DNA of 63,221 bases, filler included, from Sandaracinaceae bacterium (GCA_947483975.1; 5 parts of 5 records of this genome joined end to end with filler, not necessarily neighbours in it); one strand, 5' to 3'. Shown: positions 51,501-60,500, counted from the first letter of the whole stretch. Numbers: made by a program.

Positions 51501-54500
51501 CGCACGGCGTCAGCAGCCCCGCGAAGCCAGGGTCGAGCGGCAGCACGCGCACCGCATCGCGCGCATAGACATCGGCGAGGAGCGCGCGGTCCTCGGCGTC
51601 GAGCGGCGCCCCGAGCAGCGCCCGCACGAGCCCGAGCCGACCGAGCCCATATCCACCCTGCGGCGCGATGGCGAGCGGCCCATCGACGAGCCTCTCCAAG
51701 CCCGTGAGTCGCGCGACCACGCGCCCGAGCGCGCGCTGATGCACGACGAAGGCGAGCGCGGTGTTGGCCCGCGAGAGCCGCGCGAGCACCGCGAGCGTCC
51801 CGCCCAAACCAACGTCCTTTTCGAGAGCCTCCCACGGCGCCAAGCCGCTCGGCTCCTCGTCGCTCCCCGCCAAGCCGAGCGCTTCCGCTTCGGCGAGCAG
51901 CGCCGCGAGCGCACCGCGGCTGAGCGGAGCCTCTGGGCGCGCGACCGCGGGCTCCACGCTGCGCTGCGCGAAGCGGTCGACCTCTGTGGACAGCGCCTGC
52001 TGCTCTGTCGGCGGGGTGCTCATGATTTGTGCTCGTGTTGGCAAGAGGGAACTCATGCGCTCGATCAGTTCGCTGAGAGGGATCGCACGCCGCCCCCCCC
52101 GAGAGCCACTCACCTTGACGCACGTCAACTGCGCGAGCTTCCGGAAATGCGAACGAAGGACTGGCCTTTCGAGGGGTCAATCATGCGCGCTCAAGCCTAC
52201 GTACTCACCAAGCCCGGAACGCCGCTCGCCCAGGAATCGATCGAACTCGGCGACCTCACGCCCGGGCAGGTCGTCGTCGAGGTCCTCGCCTGCGGCCTCT
52301 GCCACACGGATCTCGGGTTCGCCGATGGCTCCGTCGCGCCGAAGCACGCGCTGCCCCTCGTCCTCGGCCACGAGGTCGTCGGCAAGGTCGTCGAGGCGGC
52401 CGCCGGAGCCGAGTCGCTCCTCGGTCGCAACGTGATCGTGCCGTCGGTGATGGCGTGCGGTGAGTGCGCCTATTGCCGCGCGGGCCGCAGCAACATCTGC
52501 CCGAAGCAGATCATGCCCGGCAACGACGTCAACGGCGGCTTCTCGACGCACATGATCGCGCCCGGGCGCGCGCTCGTGACGCTCGATGATCTCCCCGCGT
52601 CCGTGCGCCTCGACTCGCTGAGCGTCGTCGCTGACGCAGTCTCCACCGCCTATCAGGCGATCCGCCGCAGCGGCCTGCAGCGCGGCGATCTCGCCTTCGT
52701 CGTCGGCGCGGGCGGGGTCGGGGGCTTCGTCGCGCAGATCGCGCACGCGCTCGGCGCGTACGTGGTCGTCTGCGACGTGAGCGACGAGCGCCTCGCGATG
52801 GCGCGCACCCTCGGCGCCGACCACGCCGTCAACGTCGGCGGGCGCGAGCAGCGCGAGGTCCGCAAGGAGCTGCAGGGCGTCGCCAAGGAGCAGCGCATCG
52901 CGTCGCTCGGCTGGCGCATCTTCGAGTGCAGCGGCACCACGCCCGGTCAGACGCTCGCATACTCGCTGATCGGCGCCGCCTCCACGCTCGTCGTGACGGG
53001 CTTCACGCGCGAGCCCGCGAGCCTGCGCCTGTCGAACCTGATGGCCTTCGACGCCACGGTGCACGGCACCTGGGGCGCGCCGGGCGACTCCTATCCAGGC
53101 GTCCTCGAGCTGATCGCCAAGGGCGCAGTGCAGATCGAGCCAGTGATCGAGCGCGCGCCGATGTCGCGCCTCCCCGAGCTGATGGGCGCCCTCGCGCGCC
53201 ACGAGCTCGGCAAGCGAATGGTCTTGGATCCGAAGTCCTGAACAGCGACGTTTTTCGAGGAGAATCGATGCCTGAGCTCAAGAATCACGAACTGGTCGCC
53301 GGTCACGAGTTCCGCCACATCCGCTACGAAGAGCGCCCCGTGTTCGACACGGCGGGCAAGCCCGTCGAGGGCCTGCACCAGGTCCTCATCGCGCTCGACA
53401 ACGAGAAGCAGCTGAACTCGTACACGACCGCTGCGGTCAAGGACGTCATTCTCGCCTTCCGGCGCGCGAGCATCGATCGCGCCGCGGTCGCCGTCGTCTT
53501 CACCGCGGCGGGCGATCAGTCGTTCTGCACCGGCGGCAACACCGCCGAGTACGCGTCGTACTACTCGAATCGCCCCCTCGAGTATCTGCAGTACATGCGG
53601 CTCTTCAACGACATGGTCACTGCGATCTTGCTCTGCGACAAGCCCGTAGTCTGTCGCGTCAACGGGATGCGCATCGGCGGCGGCCAAGAGATCGGCATGG
53701 CGTGCGACTTCACCGTCGCCGGCGATCACGCGCGCTTCGGCCAAGCGGGTCCGAAGCACGGATCCGCCCCCGACGGCGGCGCGACGGATTTCCTCGACCT
53801 CTACGTCGGCTGTTCGGCTGCGGCTGAGTCGCTCGTCCTCTGCGAGCCGTGGTCCGCGCACAAGTCGATGCGCCTCGGCCTGATCAACGAGTTCGCGCTC
53901 GTGCACAAGACCAAGGACGGCACCTTCGTGCCGAACCCGTGGGTCGTCACCGACCGCTACATCGACGACCGCGGGCAGGTCGTCTATGGCGACTGGAAGA
54001 CCGGCGCGGCGCGCGACGACGCCAAGAAGGCGGCCGCCGAGCTGACGGTCGATCTCAAGCCGCTCGACGAGGCCTGTGAGCGCCTCGTCACGAAGCTGAT
54101 GTACACGTTCCCGGACTGCACGCGAAAGACGCTCGAGAGCCTCCGCAAGAAGAAGCTCGACTGCTGGACGCGCAACGCCGAGAGCAACCGCTCGTGGCTC
54201 TCGCTCAACATGGCGACCGAGGCGGCGGCGGGCTTCCCGGCGTTCCATTACGGCGACAAGAAGAGCGGGCGCGAGATCGACTTCGTGCTCCTGCGTCGTC
54301 GCCTCGCCGAGGGCGTGCGCTTCGAGGAGGCCCTCATCGACGAGGTGCTCCCCGCGGGCGCTCGCGCGGCGCGCGCCGCTGCGCGCAGCGAGTCCGAGAA
54401 GTGAGCGTGACTGAGGCTGTCCGCGCAGAGCTGCGCGAGAGCGGGAGTCTGCTCGAGCTCGTGATCGATGTGCCGAAGGGCAACATCCTCTCGGGCGCCG

Positions 54501-57500: not shown

Positions 57501-60500
57501 GACGGCTTCCTCATCAACAGCGTGAAGTCCTGCAACTCCTTCTCGGCAGGGCAGTTGCTCATTCTTCGCGAGATCGAGAAGCGCACCGGTGTTCCGGGCG
57601 GCTTCGTCGAATCCGACCTCGTCGACCCACGTTATTTCGGAAAAGCCAACATCGAGAATCGTGTGCAGAGCTATCTGCAGATGCTCGAAGCACGCAAGGA
57701 TCGGGGCGCCACATGAAGTGCGTAGTCGGCATCGACCTGGGCTCGACGACCACCAAAGCCGTCCTCCTCGACGAGGGCGGCGAGGTGATCGGTCGCGGCA
57801 TCACGAACAGTCGCAGCAACTACGAGGTCGCCTGCGCGGTCGCGCGTGAGGAGGCTCTGCGCGCTGCGCGCTTCACCGTCCTCGAGCGCGCGCTCGTCGC
57901 CGAGGCCCAGCACGGCGTCCCCGAGGCCGAGCGCTGGAATCGCACGCTGCGCGATCAATTCCGGCTCGAGCTCTATCTCGACGAGCTCGGGGAGCTGCGC
58001 GAGGAGATCGTGCGAGTCCTGCGTTCCCTCAGCTATCACCGCGACCGGGAGGTGCTCACGGCCGCGGCGCACGAGGTGATCGACGGGATCGTCGCGGAGG
58101 CGCCCGCGCTGTTCTCCGAGGTGGGCGCGCGCCGAAGCGACTTCTTCCGCGATCTCGCGGCGGCGGGCTTCATGGCGGGCGCAGAGAAGATCGCGTCGCG
58201 GGACGGCATCGGCTTCGAGCGCCTCGTCGGGCTCTTCGATCGGGCCATCCTCGACGTCGAGACGCGCCTCACCGCGCGTCCGTTCGGCGCGCTCCTGACG
58301 CGCGCCGGGGCGCGGCTCCTCGGCACCGAGAGCGACGAGCTGCGGCGCACGGCGCTGACCCGCGCCATCGGGCGCGCGGCGGCGGAGCCGATCGAGGAGA
58401 TCTCCTTCGTCGGCACGGGCTACGGGCGGCAGACGCTGCCGTTCCCGAAGTCCGCCGTGAAGAGCGAGATCCTCTGTCATGGGCGCGGCGCACACCGCGT
58501 GTTCCCGGGCACGCGCACCGTGCTCGACATCGGCGGGCAGGACACGAAGGCGATTCAGGTCGACGACGCCGGAGTGGTCACCTCCTTCCAGATGAACGAT
58601 CGCTGCGCGGCGGGCTGTGGGCGCTATCTCGGCTACATCGCGGACGAGCTGAACCTCGGGCTGCACGAGCTAGGTCCGCTCGCGCTCGAGGCGCATCGCG
58701 TCGTGAAGGTGAACTCGACGTGCACCGTGTTCGCGGGCGCGGAGCTCCGCGAGCGGCTCGCGCTCGGCGAGCGCCGCGAGGACATCCTCGCGGGGCTCCA
58801 CCGCTCGATCATGCTGCGCGCGATGTCGCTGATCGCGCGCTCGGGCGGCGTGGACAACGAGTTCACGTTCACGGGCGGCGTCTGCCGCAACCCGATGGCG
58901 ACCAAGGTCCTCGGCGAGCTCGTCGAGGAAAACTACGGCGCTGGGATCACGATCAACGCGCACAGCGACTCCATCTTCATGGGCGCGCTCGGGGCAGCGA
59001 TGTTCGGTCTCGACGACGTGCGCGCCGGGCGTCCGGCGGTGATGCCGAGCTTCGTGCAAGCGGCGATGGCGCAGTGATCAGCCTAGAGAAGAAGAGGAAC
59101 GCGCCATGACCCAGAGCAAGAACGGACACCTGACGGTCGGTATCGACCCCGGCGCGAGCCACGTGAAGGTCGCCCTGATGCGCAGTCGGGCGGGGGCGGA
59201 GCCGGAGCTGCTCGGCACCACCGTGCAGCGCATTCGGCGCCGCAACGTGTACGAGGTCGTCAAGCTCGCCTTCGCGGAGACGTGCACCGCGGCGGGCGTC
59301 GATCCGGCGCAGCTCGACTACATCGCCAGCACGGGAGACGGCGACAGCGTCGAGTTCCGTACGGGGCATTTCTACAGCATCACCACGCACGCGCGCGGGG
59401 CGCTGTTCTTGAATCCCGCGGTGCGCTCCGCGCTCGACGTCGGCGCGCTGCACGCGCGGGCGCTCGCCATGACCGACGAGGGGCGCGTCGTCTCTCATCG
59501 CATGACGAGCCAGTGCGCGAGCGGCAGCGGGCAGTTCCTCGAGAACATCGCGCGCTATCTCGGCGTCCCGCTCGAGGACGTCGGCGAGATCTCGCGCGCC
59601 GGCGCCAATCCAGAGAAGGTGTCGAGCATCTGCGCGGTCCTCGCGGAGACGGACGTCATCAACATGGTCGCGCGTGGCATTCCCACGGCGGACATCCTCA
59701 AGGGGATTCACATCAGCATCGCAGGGCGGCTGCTGCAGCTGATTCGCGCGGTCGGCGCGGAGGGCACCGTGATGATCACGGGCGGACTCTCGCGCGACGT
59801 CGGGCTCGTCGCCGCTGTCGTCGAGCTTGCGGACGAGGAGAAGCCCCGCAAGGGCCGTCCGCAGCACACGCTCGTGTTCGAGACGCACCCCAACGCCGTT
59901 TACGCAGGCGCGATCGGCGCTGCGCTGCTCGGCGCGTTCCGGCACGATCAGCTCGCCCGTCGTGGGCAGGCGCTCATGAAGCCCGTCGTCGCGCTCGCCT
60001 GAAATAGCGCGTTCTCAACCTGGGGGTGTGCGTGATGCTCGTCACGCGCACCCCCATTCGTTGAGTCTGCGCAAACAGAAGCGCCCGGCGCACGTCAAGA
60101 CGAGCGCACGCGGAGGTTCTCGGTGGCGCTCGCGTTGGGGATCGATGTGGGGTCGACGACGGTGAAGGTCGTCGCGGTCGATGACCGCGCGCGGCTGCGT
60201 TGGGCTGCGTCCGCGCGGCACGCAGGGCGCCCCTTCGAGCTCGTCGCGACGCTGAAGCGCGCCGCTCAGGAGGTCATCGGCGAGACCCGCGTCGGCTACA
60301 CGGGGACGCTCGGCACGATGCTCGCGGAGGCCGCGCGCGCGACGGCGGTGCACGAGGTGCACGCGGTGACGCTCGCGGTGCGGGTGCGGGCGCCTCACGC
60401 GCGCACGATCGTGGAGCTAGGCGGGCAGGACGCGAAGGTGATCTGGCTCGACCGGGACTCGGCGCGCTCGGAGATGAACGACCGCTGCGCGGCGGGCACG

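Follow-up and report, generated by a model that had tools for sequence, protein, structure and literature searches.

A predicted Thauera-type benzoyl-CoA reductase operon in a Sandaracinaceae bacterium and its recurrence across the Myxococcota

Introduction

Cultured degraders with class I benzoyl-CoA reductase (BCR) are mostly Proteobacteria. The closest described system is that of Thauera aromatica, whose cluster holds bcrCBAD, genes for the three ring-opening enzymes Dch, Had and Oah, and fdx; KorAB-type ferredoxin supply to BCR has been described in Thauera (PMC2984482). Related enzymes are BzdNOPQ of Aromatoleum sp. CIB (PDB 8S02) and MbdONPQ (PDB 9G87/9GAI), and the roles of the active-site [4Fe-4S] cysteine ligands and of a conserved glutamate have been laid out together with the BCR mechanism (PMC11971306). 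As far as the accessible text of the reports goes, the bcrABCD-dch-had-oah cassette has also been described, as a gene-content claim throughout, in uncultured Krumholzibacteriota (PMC10936416), in Acidobacteriota (PMC13170169) and in Zixibacteria, B64-G9 and Anaeromyxobacter MAGs (PMC11704145); that text describes no Polyangiales carriers, order or phylum frequency, Hcr/NosZ coupling or FNR-like box. Here we analyse a window of 63,221 nucleotides (five joined records, filler included) from a Sandaracinaceae bacterium (GCA_947483975.1), an 81% complete bin.

Results

The contig carrying the locus (C132) occupies positions 50694-63221 of the window. Seven stop-free ORFs on the same strand, abutting or overlapping, form an intact had-oah-dch-bcrCBAD operon at 52183-60002 (Table 1), which bears out the whole operon reported in an earlier note. 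In line with the list given there, Had, Oah, BcrC and BcrB exceed their NCBIfam cut-offs; Dch, BcrA and BcrD stay below. Dch matches its best family over the full length, the second-best family reaching 101 bits; BcrA and BcrD match their best families by wide margins, yet both lie under the curated equivalog cut-offs. The Zn-type Cys/His residues of Had are invariant in 97/97 homologues. A scan for sigma-70 promoters and terminators found nothing exceeding shuffled sequences. The divergent acyl-CoA dehydrogenase-like gene, whose longest ORF reaches 52128, is a bcr neighbour in 1 of 80 named loci. The two-ATPase CoA activase is found at the equal position in a close relative (L188, 82%) and adjoins bcrD in none of the 80 named loci or 40 order loci; it is a local neighbour outside the conserved cassette. 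For a lake metatranscriptome (X20, share 0.08), eight contig pieces are listed, seven in the operon and one in the activase; several differ by 1-10%, and the pieces, which may represent other strains or DNA carry-over, are not counted as expression evidence.

Table 1. Features of the locus and of the aerobic benzoyl-CoA genes (positions in the window; scores as bits/cut-off)
Feature	Position	Strand	Remarks
Acyl-CoA dehydrogenase-like gene, divergent	50896..52023	-	PF00441 only; likely ATG at 52023
FNR/Crp-type perfect palindrome TTGAC-N4-GTCAA	52115..52128		55-68 bp upstream of had
had	52183..53241	+	TIGR03201 395/339, passes
oah, 6-oxocyclohex-1-ene-1-carbonyl-CoA hydrolase (ring-opening), 378 aa	53268..54404	+	TIGR03200 503/464, passes
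dch, dienoyl-CoA hydratase, 260 aa	54407..55189	+	TIGR03189 203/292, below cut-off
bcrC, Fe-S subunit (catalytic dimer), 405 aa	55186..56403	+	TIGR02263 425.6/421.2, passes
bcrB, active-site subunit, 438 aa	56400..57716	+	TIGR02260 690/487, passes
bcrA, long ATPase subunit, 454 aa	57713..59077	+	TIGR02259 522/578, full-length best match, below cut-off
bcrD, short ATPase subunit, 298 aa	59106..60002	+	TIGR02261 308/313, full-length best match, below cut-off
CoA activase, two ATPase domains + DUF2229, 1012 aa	60123..63161	+	PF01869 x2, PF09989
boxC (aerobic benzoyl-CoA route), on contig C130	26859..28502	+	TIGR03222 832/712
boxB, benzoyl-CoA epoxidase, on contig C130	28544..30085	+	TIGR03225 728/499

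Family scores and residues support a predicted BCR-type (Thauera) class I reductase with its ring-opening enzymes, and the earlier assignment stands: Bcr families score best, and every expected Fe-S cysteine is kept, as is the catalytic glutamate. One cluster encodes a BcrC/BcrB dimer and two distinct ATPases, a long A and a short D. BcrB scores 690 bits as Bcr vs 171 as HadB, 199 as MbdO and 70 as BzdO; the values for BcrC are 426 vs 119 (HadC), 185 (MbdN) and 71 (BzdN). Residues C101, C136, C378 and E72 of BcrB, invariant across 127-128 homologues, align with MbdO and HadB and correspond by motif and spacing to C95/C128/C380/E65 of BzdO, so that the three-Cys cluster and the glutamate are shared with BzdNOPQ; the position of BzdO His131, judged by spacing, is Phe here, like MbdO. 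BcrC has four invariant cysteines (C94, C121, C261 and C351, across 117-118 homologues), not the six-Cys [8Fe-9S] site of BzdN, and the bzd models score far under their cut-offs. Both ATPase subunits carry an N-terminal ATP-binding motif and two cysteines each for the bridging cluster: C298/C337 of BcrA align with the MbdQ cysteines and are invariant in 106/106 homologues, and C137/C176 of BcrD in 98/98. MbdQ, at 269 aa, is much shorter than BcrA.

Compared with T. aromatica, the C-B-A-D order, the long A subunit, the three ring-opening enzymes, the Fe-S ligands and the glutamate are alike. The differences are a cluster without fdx, the sub-threshold scores of Dch, A and D, a bin in which no benzoate-CoA ligase was found, and a myxobacterial host. 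BcrB is 62-67% identical to that of nine proteobacterial MAGs, and the BcrB sequences of the order and of proteobacteria form separate clades. A second HGD-D cluster (C50), considered as a BCR, was rejected as Had-like with one activator.

TIGR02260 (BcrB) exceeds its cut-off in 54/401 order genomes, the present one included, and in none of three own-family genomes or 14 controls. One of these matches (G171, on a 1.5-kb contig) is a contaminant, 97% identical to a betaproteobacterial protein, and was dropped, leaving 52/400 other order genomes (13%) from 8 family codes. The recurrence in many families described earlier thus holds, at a frequency nearer to one in eight than the one in seven first given. 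What does not hold is that the trait is special to Polyangiales: 46 of the 55 carriers among 400 phylum genomes lie outside the order, which makes the bcr operon a Myxococcota-wide trait, and many other phyla have it too. Records from Eisenbacteria, Planctomycetota, Acidobacteriota, Gemmatimonadota and Krumholzibacteria show the cassette with equal gene order; the 80 named relatives are all MAGs. A plasmid search returned distant homologues only (22-27%).

Because bcrB and hcrA are both missing from the three own-family genomes, and BcrCBAD of this bin nests among sequences of family f17 as sister to G399, C132 might have been mis-binned, for example from an f17 genome, and contamination of MAGs might inflate the frequency, as is clear for G171 and likely for contig C25 of G295 (near-identical to an f16 copy). 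We regard this as highly improbable. C132 has a GC content of 0.705 and ranks 37 of 136 in tetranucleotide distance, and operon GC3 (0.87-0.92) compares with a genome median of 0.92. In L188, an independent relative (81-93% identity), the operon continues into genes whose best matches here fall on C355 and the nos contig (C299); the remaining genes of C355 have their best match in G032 of the own family (71% over 2.3 kb). In this bin hcr is found on a contig other than C132, and in many carriers the operon sits on contigs 0.2-5.7 Mb long. C132 shares no exact end overlap with another contig. Judged by its composition, by synteny in a relative and by family matches, contamination of C132 is not favoured.

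Within the order the operon stays together as a unit: 29 of 40 fetched order loci hold all seven genes. A BcrB-alone tree, five nested foreign rows left out, neither shows nor rejects a single order origin. With concatenated CBAD (67 rows), strict order monophyly and f17 as one clade are both rejected and the order plus the five nested rows is not (p-AU 0.30), in tests that are rough (FastTree topologies, 1000 replicates).

Oah exceeds its cut-off here and in 47/53 carriers. It is missing in 5/53: genus g60 (3/3 genomes, 88-98% complete, 4-20 contigs), G253 and G084, which by gene content would be unable to open the ring via the known step. These genomes, the direct adjacency of had and dch in G102, G354 and G373, and the isopropylmalate-synthase-like gene that accompanies hcr/bcr in 8/80 loci would fit a reductase that acts on another aryl-CoA or makes alicyclic units for biosynthesis, at least in some lineages. 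The prevalence of oah speaks against such a role, as does the lack of a recurring PKS/NRPS family among neighbour clusters, and we consider it very unlikely.

The substrate first proposed, benzoate, was not supported. No benzoate-CoA ligase in the bin exceeds the cut-off, the best TIGR02262 match (306/375) being a long-chain ligase. Among 52 bcr+ and 28 bcr- order genomes, the latter picked without family matching, ligases of at least 700 bits are not enriched (9/52 vs 5/28), in contrast to HcrA-like genes (44/52 vs 4/28, none over cut-off in the 80 genomes). No aryl-CoA ligase of any kind was identified in the bin. Of five fetched neighbourhoods of ligases scoring 480-515 bits, three have no aromatic-pathway context and the other two are too poorly gene-called to be informative. 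The single ammonia-lyase of the bin is HutH (histidine ammonia-lyase) rather than a Phe/Tyr enzyme, and no Pad enzymes were found in the bin, a C104 oxidoreductase scoring 251/700 vs PadG. With no ligase, Pad or Phe/Tyr ammonia-lyase in the bin, the genome either lacks an entry step or has one that was not assembled. On contig C55, HcrA/B-like proteins have Thauera HCR (HcrCAB, PDB 1RM6) as nearest relative (E 2e-183 vs next 1.5e-79). HcrCAB is the best structural relative of the C55 trio and the Cys-rich Fe-S insert aligns in the beta (FAD) subunit, HcrB, whereas all three C55 subunits score under curated cut-offs (837/995, 293/405, 201/258); the genes are flanked by an isopropylmalate-synthase-like gene. 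The pattern suggests that 4-hydroxybenzoyl-CoA is a likelier feeder than benzoate.

The respiratory and aerobic genes described earlier were largely recovered. BoxB, BoxC and a clade I NosZ (892/625) score above cut-off; next to nosZ are NosR-like and NosD genes, and no boxA or CoA ligase is among the genes called on C130. In a close relative, nosY-like genes occur about 7 kb downstream of bcrD. For the NO reductase, a COX1-family subunit, a cytochrome c and an AAA ATPase are present on C280; their layout is read as that of a cNor. NarG or NapA was not found among four PF00384 matches (two scanned, two read from gene context), nor were NirS, NirK or NrfA in this 81% complete bin, in agreement with the lack of nitrate and nitrite reductases noted before. 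The genome encodes both aa3 and cbb3 oxidases and, outside the cluster, a YfhL-type ferredoxin (103/86 bits; also found in non-degraders), two OFOR alpha subunits over cut-off and a PFOR.

Respiratory N-oxide reductases accompany bcr across the order: NosZ (36/52 bcr+ vs 5/28 bcr-), cd1/NirS-type (21/52 vs 0/28), NarG (14/52 vs 1/28) and NapA-like proteins (19/52 vs 3/28, every match under cut-off). At least one of Nar, Nap, NirS and NosZ occurs in 48/52 vs 8/28 genomes, in 30/32 vs 4/18 genera and, inside family f17, in 30/31 vs 5/23, although p-values for such co-occurrence are overstated because kin are non-independent. NrfA (12 vs 9) and NirK (14 vs 4) show no clear enrichment in the 52 vs 28 genomes, which argues against a mere effect of genome size. 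Nar/Nap, Nir and NosZ occur together in 16/52 carriers (hand count). NosZ without a detectable nitrate or nitrite reductase is seen in 9/52, six of them with oah, and in this bin; in 4/52 no N-oxide reductase was detected.

Upstream of had lies a perfect FNR-like palindrome. It is the sole match in the window (0.01 expected); genome-wide there are two perfect sites in 5.29 Mb, vs 2.8 expected from a Markov model. A box with at most one mismatch precedes had in 13/32 order loci, vs a shuffle mean of 0.37 and a maximum of 3. A Cys-bearing Crp/Fnr gene occurs in seven bcr loci, four of these with a perfect box; the gene found beside relatives' operons is not present in this bin, whose nos and nor genes were also found to have no FNR-like box upstream. 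Together, the box and the co-occurrence with N-oxide reductases and HcrA give independent support for a probable anoxic use of the operon.

The enzymes might nevertheless be active without supporting growth, clearing aryl-CoA esters that arise from prey amino acids or from secondary metabolism whenever oxygen is briefly lacking, in organisms that make their living aerobically. BoxB in 51/52 carriers (vs 14/28 bcr- genomes) indicates aromatic flux in oxic life, BCR costs ATP for each electron, and this bin has aa3/cbb3 oxidases yet no identified nitrate/nitrite reductase or ligase. Such growth-free use seems unlikely given the strong coupling of bcr to respiratory N-oxide reductases and HcrA, and given the 16 carriers that combine Nar/Nap, Nir and NosZ.

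Discussion

The bacterium is probably a facultatively anaerobic lake myxobacterium that uses BoxBC with oxygen and the bcr operon without it, with 4-hydroxybenzoyl-CoA as feeder and N-oxides as acceptors. From the known enzymes we infer the reactions, the source of electrons, the control of the operon, its substrate and the acceptor, and with them two alternative routes for benzoyl-CoA in one cell. When oxygen is present, BoxBC would epoxidise and open benzoyl-CoA; when it is absent, the Crp/Fnr-type site would switch on had-oah-dch-bcrCBAD. A 2-oxoacid:ferredoxin oxidoreductase would reduce a low-potential 2[4Fe-4S] ferredoxin, and BcrAD would hydrolyse ATP to drive electrons from it to BcrBC, which would convert benzoyl-CoA to cyclohexa-1,5-dienoyl-CoA. 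Hydration by Dch, oxidation by Had and ring opening by Oah would then yield 3-hydroxypimelyl-CoA. The main feeder would probably be 4-hydroxybenzoyl-CoA, derived from tyrosine or lignin p-hydroxy aromatics and reduced by the HcrCAB-like enzyme, rather than free benzoate. Electron acceptors in this bin may be N2O and NO, possibly also Fe(III) or humics through MtrC-type cytochromes; nitrate and nitrite would be terminal acceptors in many relatives.

We thus appear to be dealing with an already known system whose hosts here have largely gone unrecognised. Its enzymology holds nothing new, and the presence of the cassette in many other uncultured phyla limits the surprise. Two papers come near the idea for Myxococcota, but neither names bcr in Polyangiales, as the word unrecognised in the earlier note implied; that word is weakened by NCBI annotation, which calls these MAG proteins BcrB, and by a 2026 preprint that reports Polyangiaceae benzoate/toluene degradation genes coupled to anaerobic respiration.

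A wider reading, which we put forward as speculative and rather doubtful, is that myxobacteria (about one genome in seven to eight, phylum-wide) form a major guild, so far unrecognised, for the anoxic mineralisation of p-hydroxy aromatics from prey tyrosine and lignin monomers, with a NosZ-only subset in which ring reduction would be coupled solely to N2O respiration and which would act as an aromatic-fuelled N2O sink in lakes and sludge. For uncultured Polyangiales, enrichment on 4-hydroxybenzoate with N2O or nitrate suggests itself. If the route does operate with nitrate or N2O in 13-14% of Myxococcota species genomes, an abundant group regarded as aerobic predators would contribute to the anoxic turnover of aromatics in lakes, soils and activated sludge, and possibly to the removal of N2O there.

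Operon content and reductase type

The window strings together five contigs with N spacers between them, and the operon is on C132. The bin of the Sandaracinaceae bacterium (5.29 Mb, 524 contigs, 81% complete, 0.6% contamination) carries seven intact open reading frames between 52183 and 60002, all in one direction. The NCBIfam assignments, together with the far lower scores that the Bzd and Had models give on these proteins, uphold the had-oah-dch-bcrCBAD operon described in the earlier note, whose overall interpretation, a whole Thauera-type route of anaerobic benzoate degradation in unrecognised Polyangiales degraders, is partly supported. 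The flanking DUF2229 and acyl-CoA dehydrogenase-like genes both lie outside the cassette conserved among the named-record and order loci compared.

Positions of the operon and of other features; bits are NCBIfam score/curated cut-off
Feature	Location	Details
Operon-bearing contig C132	window 50694-63221	
Acyl-CoA dehydrogenase-like gene	upstream of had operon	divergent
Perfect palindrome TTGAC-N4-GTCAA	window 52115-52128	
had		395/339 bits
oah		503/464 bits
dch		203/292 bits, under cut-off
bcrC		425.6/421.2 bits
bcrB		690/487 bits
bcrA		522/578 bits, under cut-off
bcrD		308/313 bits, under cut-off
Two-ATPase DUF2229 gene ('CoA activase')	window 60123-63161	directly behind bcrD
'CoA activase' systems and partners	window 60123-63161; C355:4307-5404; C218:3456-8716	
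Tandem GNAT protein	C457:1884-2912	
Had-type dehydratase trio	C50:9146-12332 (locus L129:3147-6333)	two HGD-D subunits, one activator
HMGL-like gene	C55:7213-8511 (locus L133:2214-3512)	immediately upstream of hcrC
Second HMGL-like copy	C123:603-1877	
ABC transporter, nosY-like, cytochrome c genes	metagenome locus L188:7318-11901	within ~7 kb of bcrD
Multiheme cytochromes	C64:11830-14820; C320:1-4128; C3:15698-22276; C6:9157-12626; C100; C150	
Selenium-dependent xanthine dehydrogenase	C14:10780-22521	902/830 bits; YgfK-like gene nearby
bcr operons without oah	L151 (G102); L163 (G354); L174 (G373); L158 (G253); L159 (G295)	fetched loci (genomes)

The active site of BzdO comprises three cysteines, Glu65 and His131, according to the accessible part of PMC11971306. 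C101, C136, C378 and E72 of the BcrB found here align with MbdO and HadB, and are invariant among 127-128 homologues; the position of His131, inferred by spacing, is Phe in this BcrB and likewise in MbdO. C298/C337 of BcrA align with MbdQ, and the corresponding BcrD cysteines are C137/C176. Whereas the double cubane of BzdN involves six cysteines, BcrC has four invariant ones here. By these residues and scores, the reductase is of the BCR type, and not BZD or MBR.

In this bin, two one-component 'CoA activase' systems combine a double ATPase and DUF2229 with a partner gene that has no NCBIfam family; the partners on C355 and C218 have no Pfam match either. The Had-type trio adjoins a sulfatase-like gene and a radical SAM gene. 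The tandem GNAT protein, unlinked to bcr in this bin, is a homologue of the GNAT protein found next to bcrD in 36 of 80 named loci; it may regulate or modify the pathway.

A perfect palindrome that occurs once in the window and twice in the genome lies upstream of had and resembles the FNR consensus. Fnr-type control has a precedent in the bad and bzd operons. Among 32 order loci, the palindrome is found upstream of had in perfect form in seven (shuffle mean 0) and with at most one mismatch in 13 (shuffle mean 0.37), while it occurs in only one of 31 loci from other phyla; in this genome, one-mismatch sites are present in 27 of 4020 upstream regions. Seven bcr loci include a Crp/Fnr gene whose product has cysteines near its N-terminus, and no gene of that kind was found in this bin.

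Placement of the contig and origin of the operon

The operon contig has a GC content of 0.705 and ranks 37th of 136 similar-sized contigs in tetranucleotide distance; GC3 is 0.87-0.92, and the genome median is 0.92. A metagenome locus from a close relative (L188, 81-93% identical) continues from bcrCBAD and the activase into a gene whose best counterpart in this bin begins at the cut end of C355, followed by genes matching the nos-accessory contig C299. The remaining genes of C355 find their best match in a genome of the same family (G032). The nosY-like, ABC transporter and cytochrome c genes of L188 match this nos contig, and in another genome (G001) nosZ lies ~20 kb from bcrB. These points favour C132 being part of this genome. 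Against it stand the lack of bcrB and hcrA in all three genomes of the same family and the place of this sequence among family f17 in the tree, so that the operon was likely gained laterally within the order. The runs that share at least half of the words of this DNA, 10 in four studies, come from lake or freshwater metagenomes, and two of them are possibly its source.

Distribution among Polyangiales and other phyla

TIGR02260 was over its cut-off in 54 of 401 Polyangiales genomes, this one included. G171 was dropped as a carrier: its hit lies on a 1.5-kb contig (C95, locus L001), is 97% identical to a betaproteobacterial protein, and represents database contamination. After its removal, carriers number 52 of the 400 other genomes (13%) and fall into eight of 24 family codes. 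Among 40 loci retrieved from 39 genomes, with G171 still counted, 29 carry the full set of seven genes; of the rest, four are truncated where their contig ends, two have no had locally, and five have no oah.

When split G374 is added to the 52 carriers, Oah was over cut-off in 47 of these 53, with a partial match in G001 and no match in G084, G253 and all three genomes of genus g60. In the latter, which are 88-98% complete and have no Oah-level match, had abuts dch (L151, L163, L174). In genus g111, a GNAT gene occupies the place expected for oah. The sole oah of G295 lies on a contig of 10.6 kb that also encodes a BcrB nearly the same as a family f16 copy; this contig may be mis-binned.

The trait is not specific to the order but spread across the phylum: 55 of 400 Myxococcota genomes are over cut-off, 46 of them outside the order, and one family reaches 17 of 29. 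The best 80 named records are all metagenome-assembled genomes, among them members of Myxococcota, Eisenbacteria, Planctomycetota, Acidobacteriota, Gemmatimonadota and Krumholzibacteria, with mostly the same gene order. In the trees, the order sequences form three well-supported clades and one stray, and the proteobacterial BcrB group holds none of them except the contaminant. Family f17 is in all three clades. Rough tests rejected the monophyly of f17, and did not reject a single origin for the order with five nested foreign sequences.

Substrate and respiratory genes

We set the 52 carriers against 28 non-carriers picked without family matching (23 from f17, three from f9, one each from f16 and f22); gene counts are among the matches listed, and kin are not independent. 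BoxB was listed in 51/52 carriers vs 14/28 non-carriers; therefore, bcr is an add-on to the aerobic benzoyl-CoA route. Among the matches listed, the benzoate-CoA ligase subfamily is over cut-off in 43/52 vs 15/28, high-scoring ligases (at least 700 bits) appear in only 9/52 vs 5/28, and HcrA-like proteins, often adjoining bcr, in 44/52 vs 4/28. This bin, 81% complete, has no benzoate-CoA ligase over cut-off; its HcrA-like genes, on C55, are nearest the Thauera 4-hydroxybenzoyl-CoA reductase and under curated cut-offs. These frequencies suggest that 4-hydroxybenzoyl-CoA is a likelier feeder than benzoate, so that the substrate proposed earlier should probably be shifted. An isopropylmalate/homocitrate-synthase-like (HMGL-like) gene stands beside hcrC here; such genes lie near bcr or hcr in eight of 80 named loci, and one is fused to HcrC in L035 by our own gene call.

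Respiratory genes were also unevenly distributed. Among the matches listed, carriers exceed non-carriers in NosZ (36/52 vs 5/28), cd1/NirS-type reductases (21/52 vs 0/28), NarG (14/52 vs 1/28) and NapA-like proteins of at least 770 bits, all under cut-off (19/52 vs 3/28). At least one of these four was listed in 48/52 carriers vs 8/28 non-carriers, 30/32 vs 4/18 by genus and 30/31 vs 5/23 within f17. NirK was listed in 14/52 vs 4/28, its inclusion giving 48 vs 12, and NrfA was not enriched (12/52 vs 9/28). By hand count of the matches listed, 16/52 carriers combine Nar or Nap with Nir and NosZ, nine have NosZ alone, and four have none of them.

This bin encodes a clade I NosZ together with a cNor-like cluster and both aa3 and cbb3 oxidases. 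It also has PFOR, two OFORs and a ferredoxin of the YfhL type, as well as two cytochromes of the MtrC/OmcA family (314 and 185 bits, cut-off 209). Nar, Nap, NirS, NirK and NrfA were not found in its 81% complete sequence. In Thauera, electrons pass from OFOR through ferredoxin to BCR, although non-degraders also hold this ferredoxin type (both from the accessible part of PMC2984482). The multiheme cytochrome set is rich, with MtrC/OmcA-family decahemes and proteins of 8-30 CxxCH motifs, which suggests that electrons have one more outlet under anoxia, by extracellular transfer. The selenium-dependent xanthine dehydrogenase counts as a further anaerobic trait. At the level of gene content, the palindrome upstream of had, the co-occurrence of bcr with respiratory genes and the respiratory equipment of this bin give anoxic use of the operon better support than in the earlier note.

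Relation to earlier reports

No statement on bcr in Polyangiales was found in open-access full texts, a body that mostly excludes subscription papers. The accessible text of 10.64898/2026.07.10.737566 describes genes for the degradation of benzene, toluene and benzoate, 'often coupled with anaerobic respiration', in several families including Polyangiaceae; the words bcr and benzoyl are absent from it, and its supplements may list bcr. Available portions of other sources report lignin-monomer mineralisers including two Myxococcota genomes (class B64-G9 and Anaeromyxobacter; PMC11704145), the complete four-subunit bcr set in 12 of 40 Krumholzibacteriota genomes (PMC10936416), at least one benzoyl-CoA pathway gene in all Myxococcota of 10.1101/2025.11.25.690425, and nir, nor and nos in Polyangiales (PMC11821767, whose passages and supplement, as far as available, do not mention benzoyl). 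The accessible parts of 10.1101/2025.11.25.690425, PMC13170169, PMC11484514, PMC11742803, PMC6163206 and the PMC10576062 supplement contain no Polyangiales bcr report. The description of the hosts as unrecognised holds only in part, qualified by preprint 10.64898/2026.07.10.737566 and by NCBI, which already names proteins from Polyangiaceae metagenome-assembled genomes 'benzoyl-CoA reductase subunit B'. By gene content, the enzyme system is a known one, and its host group is large and mostly unrecognised.
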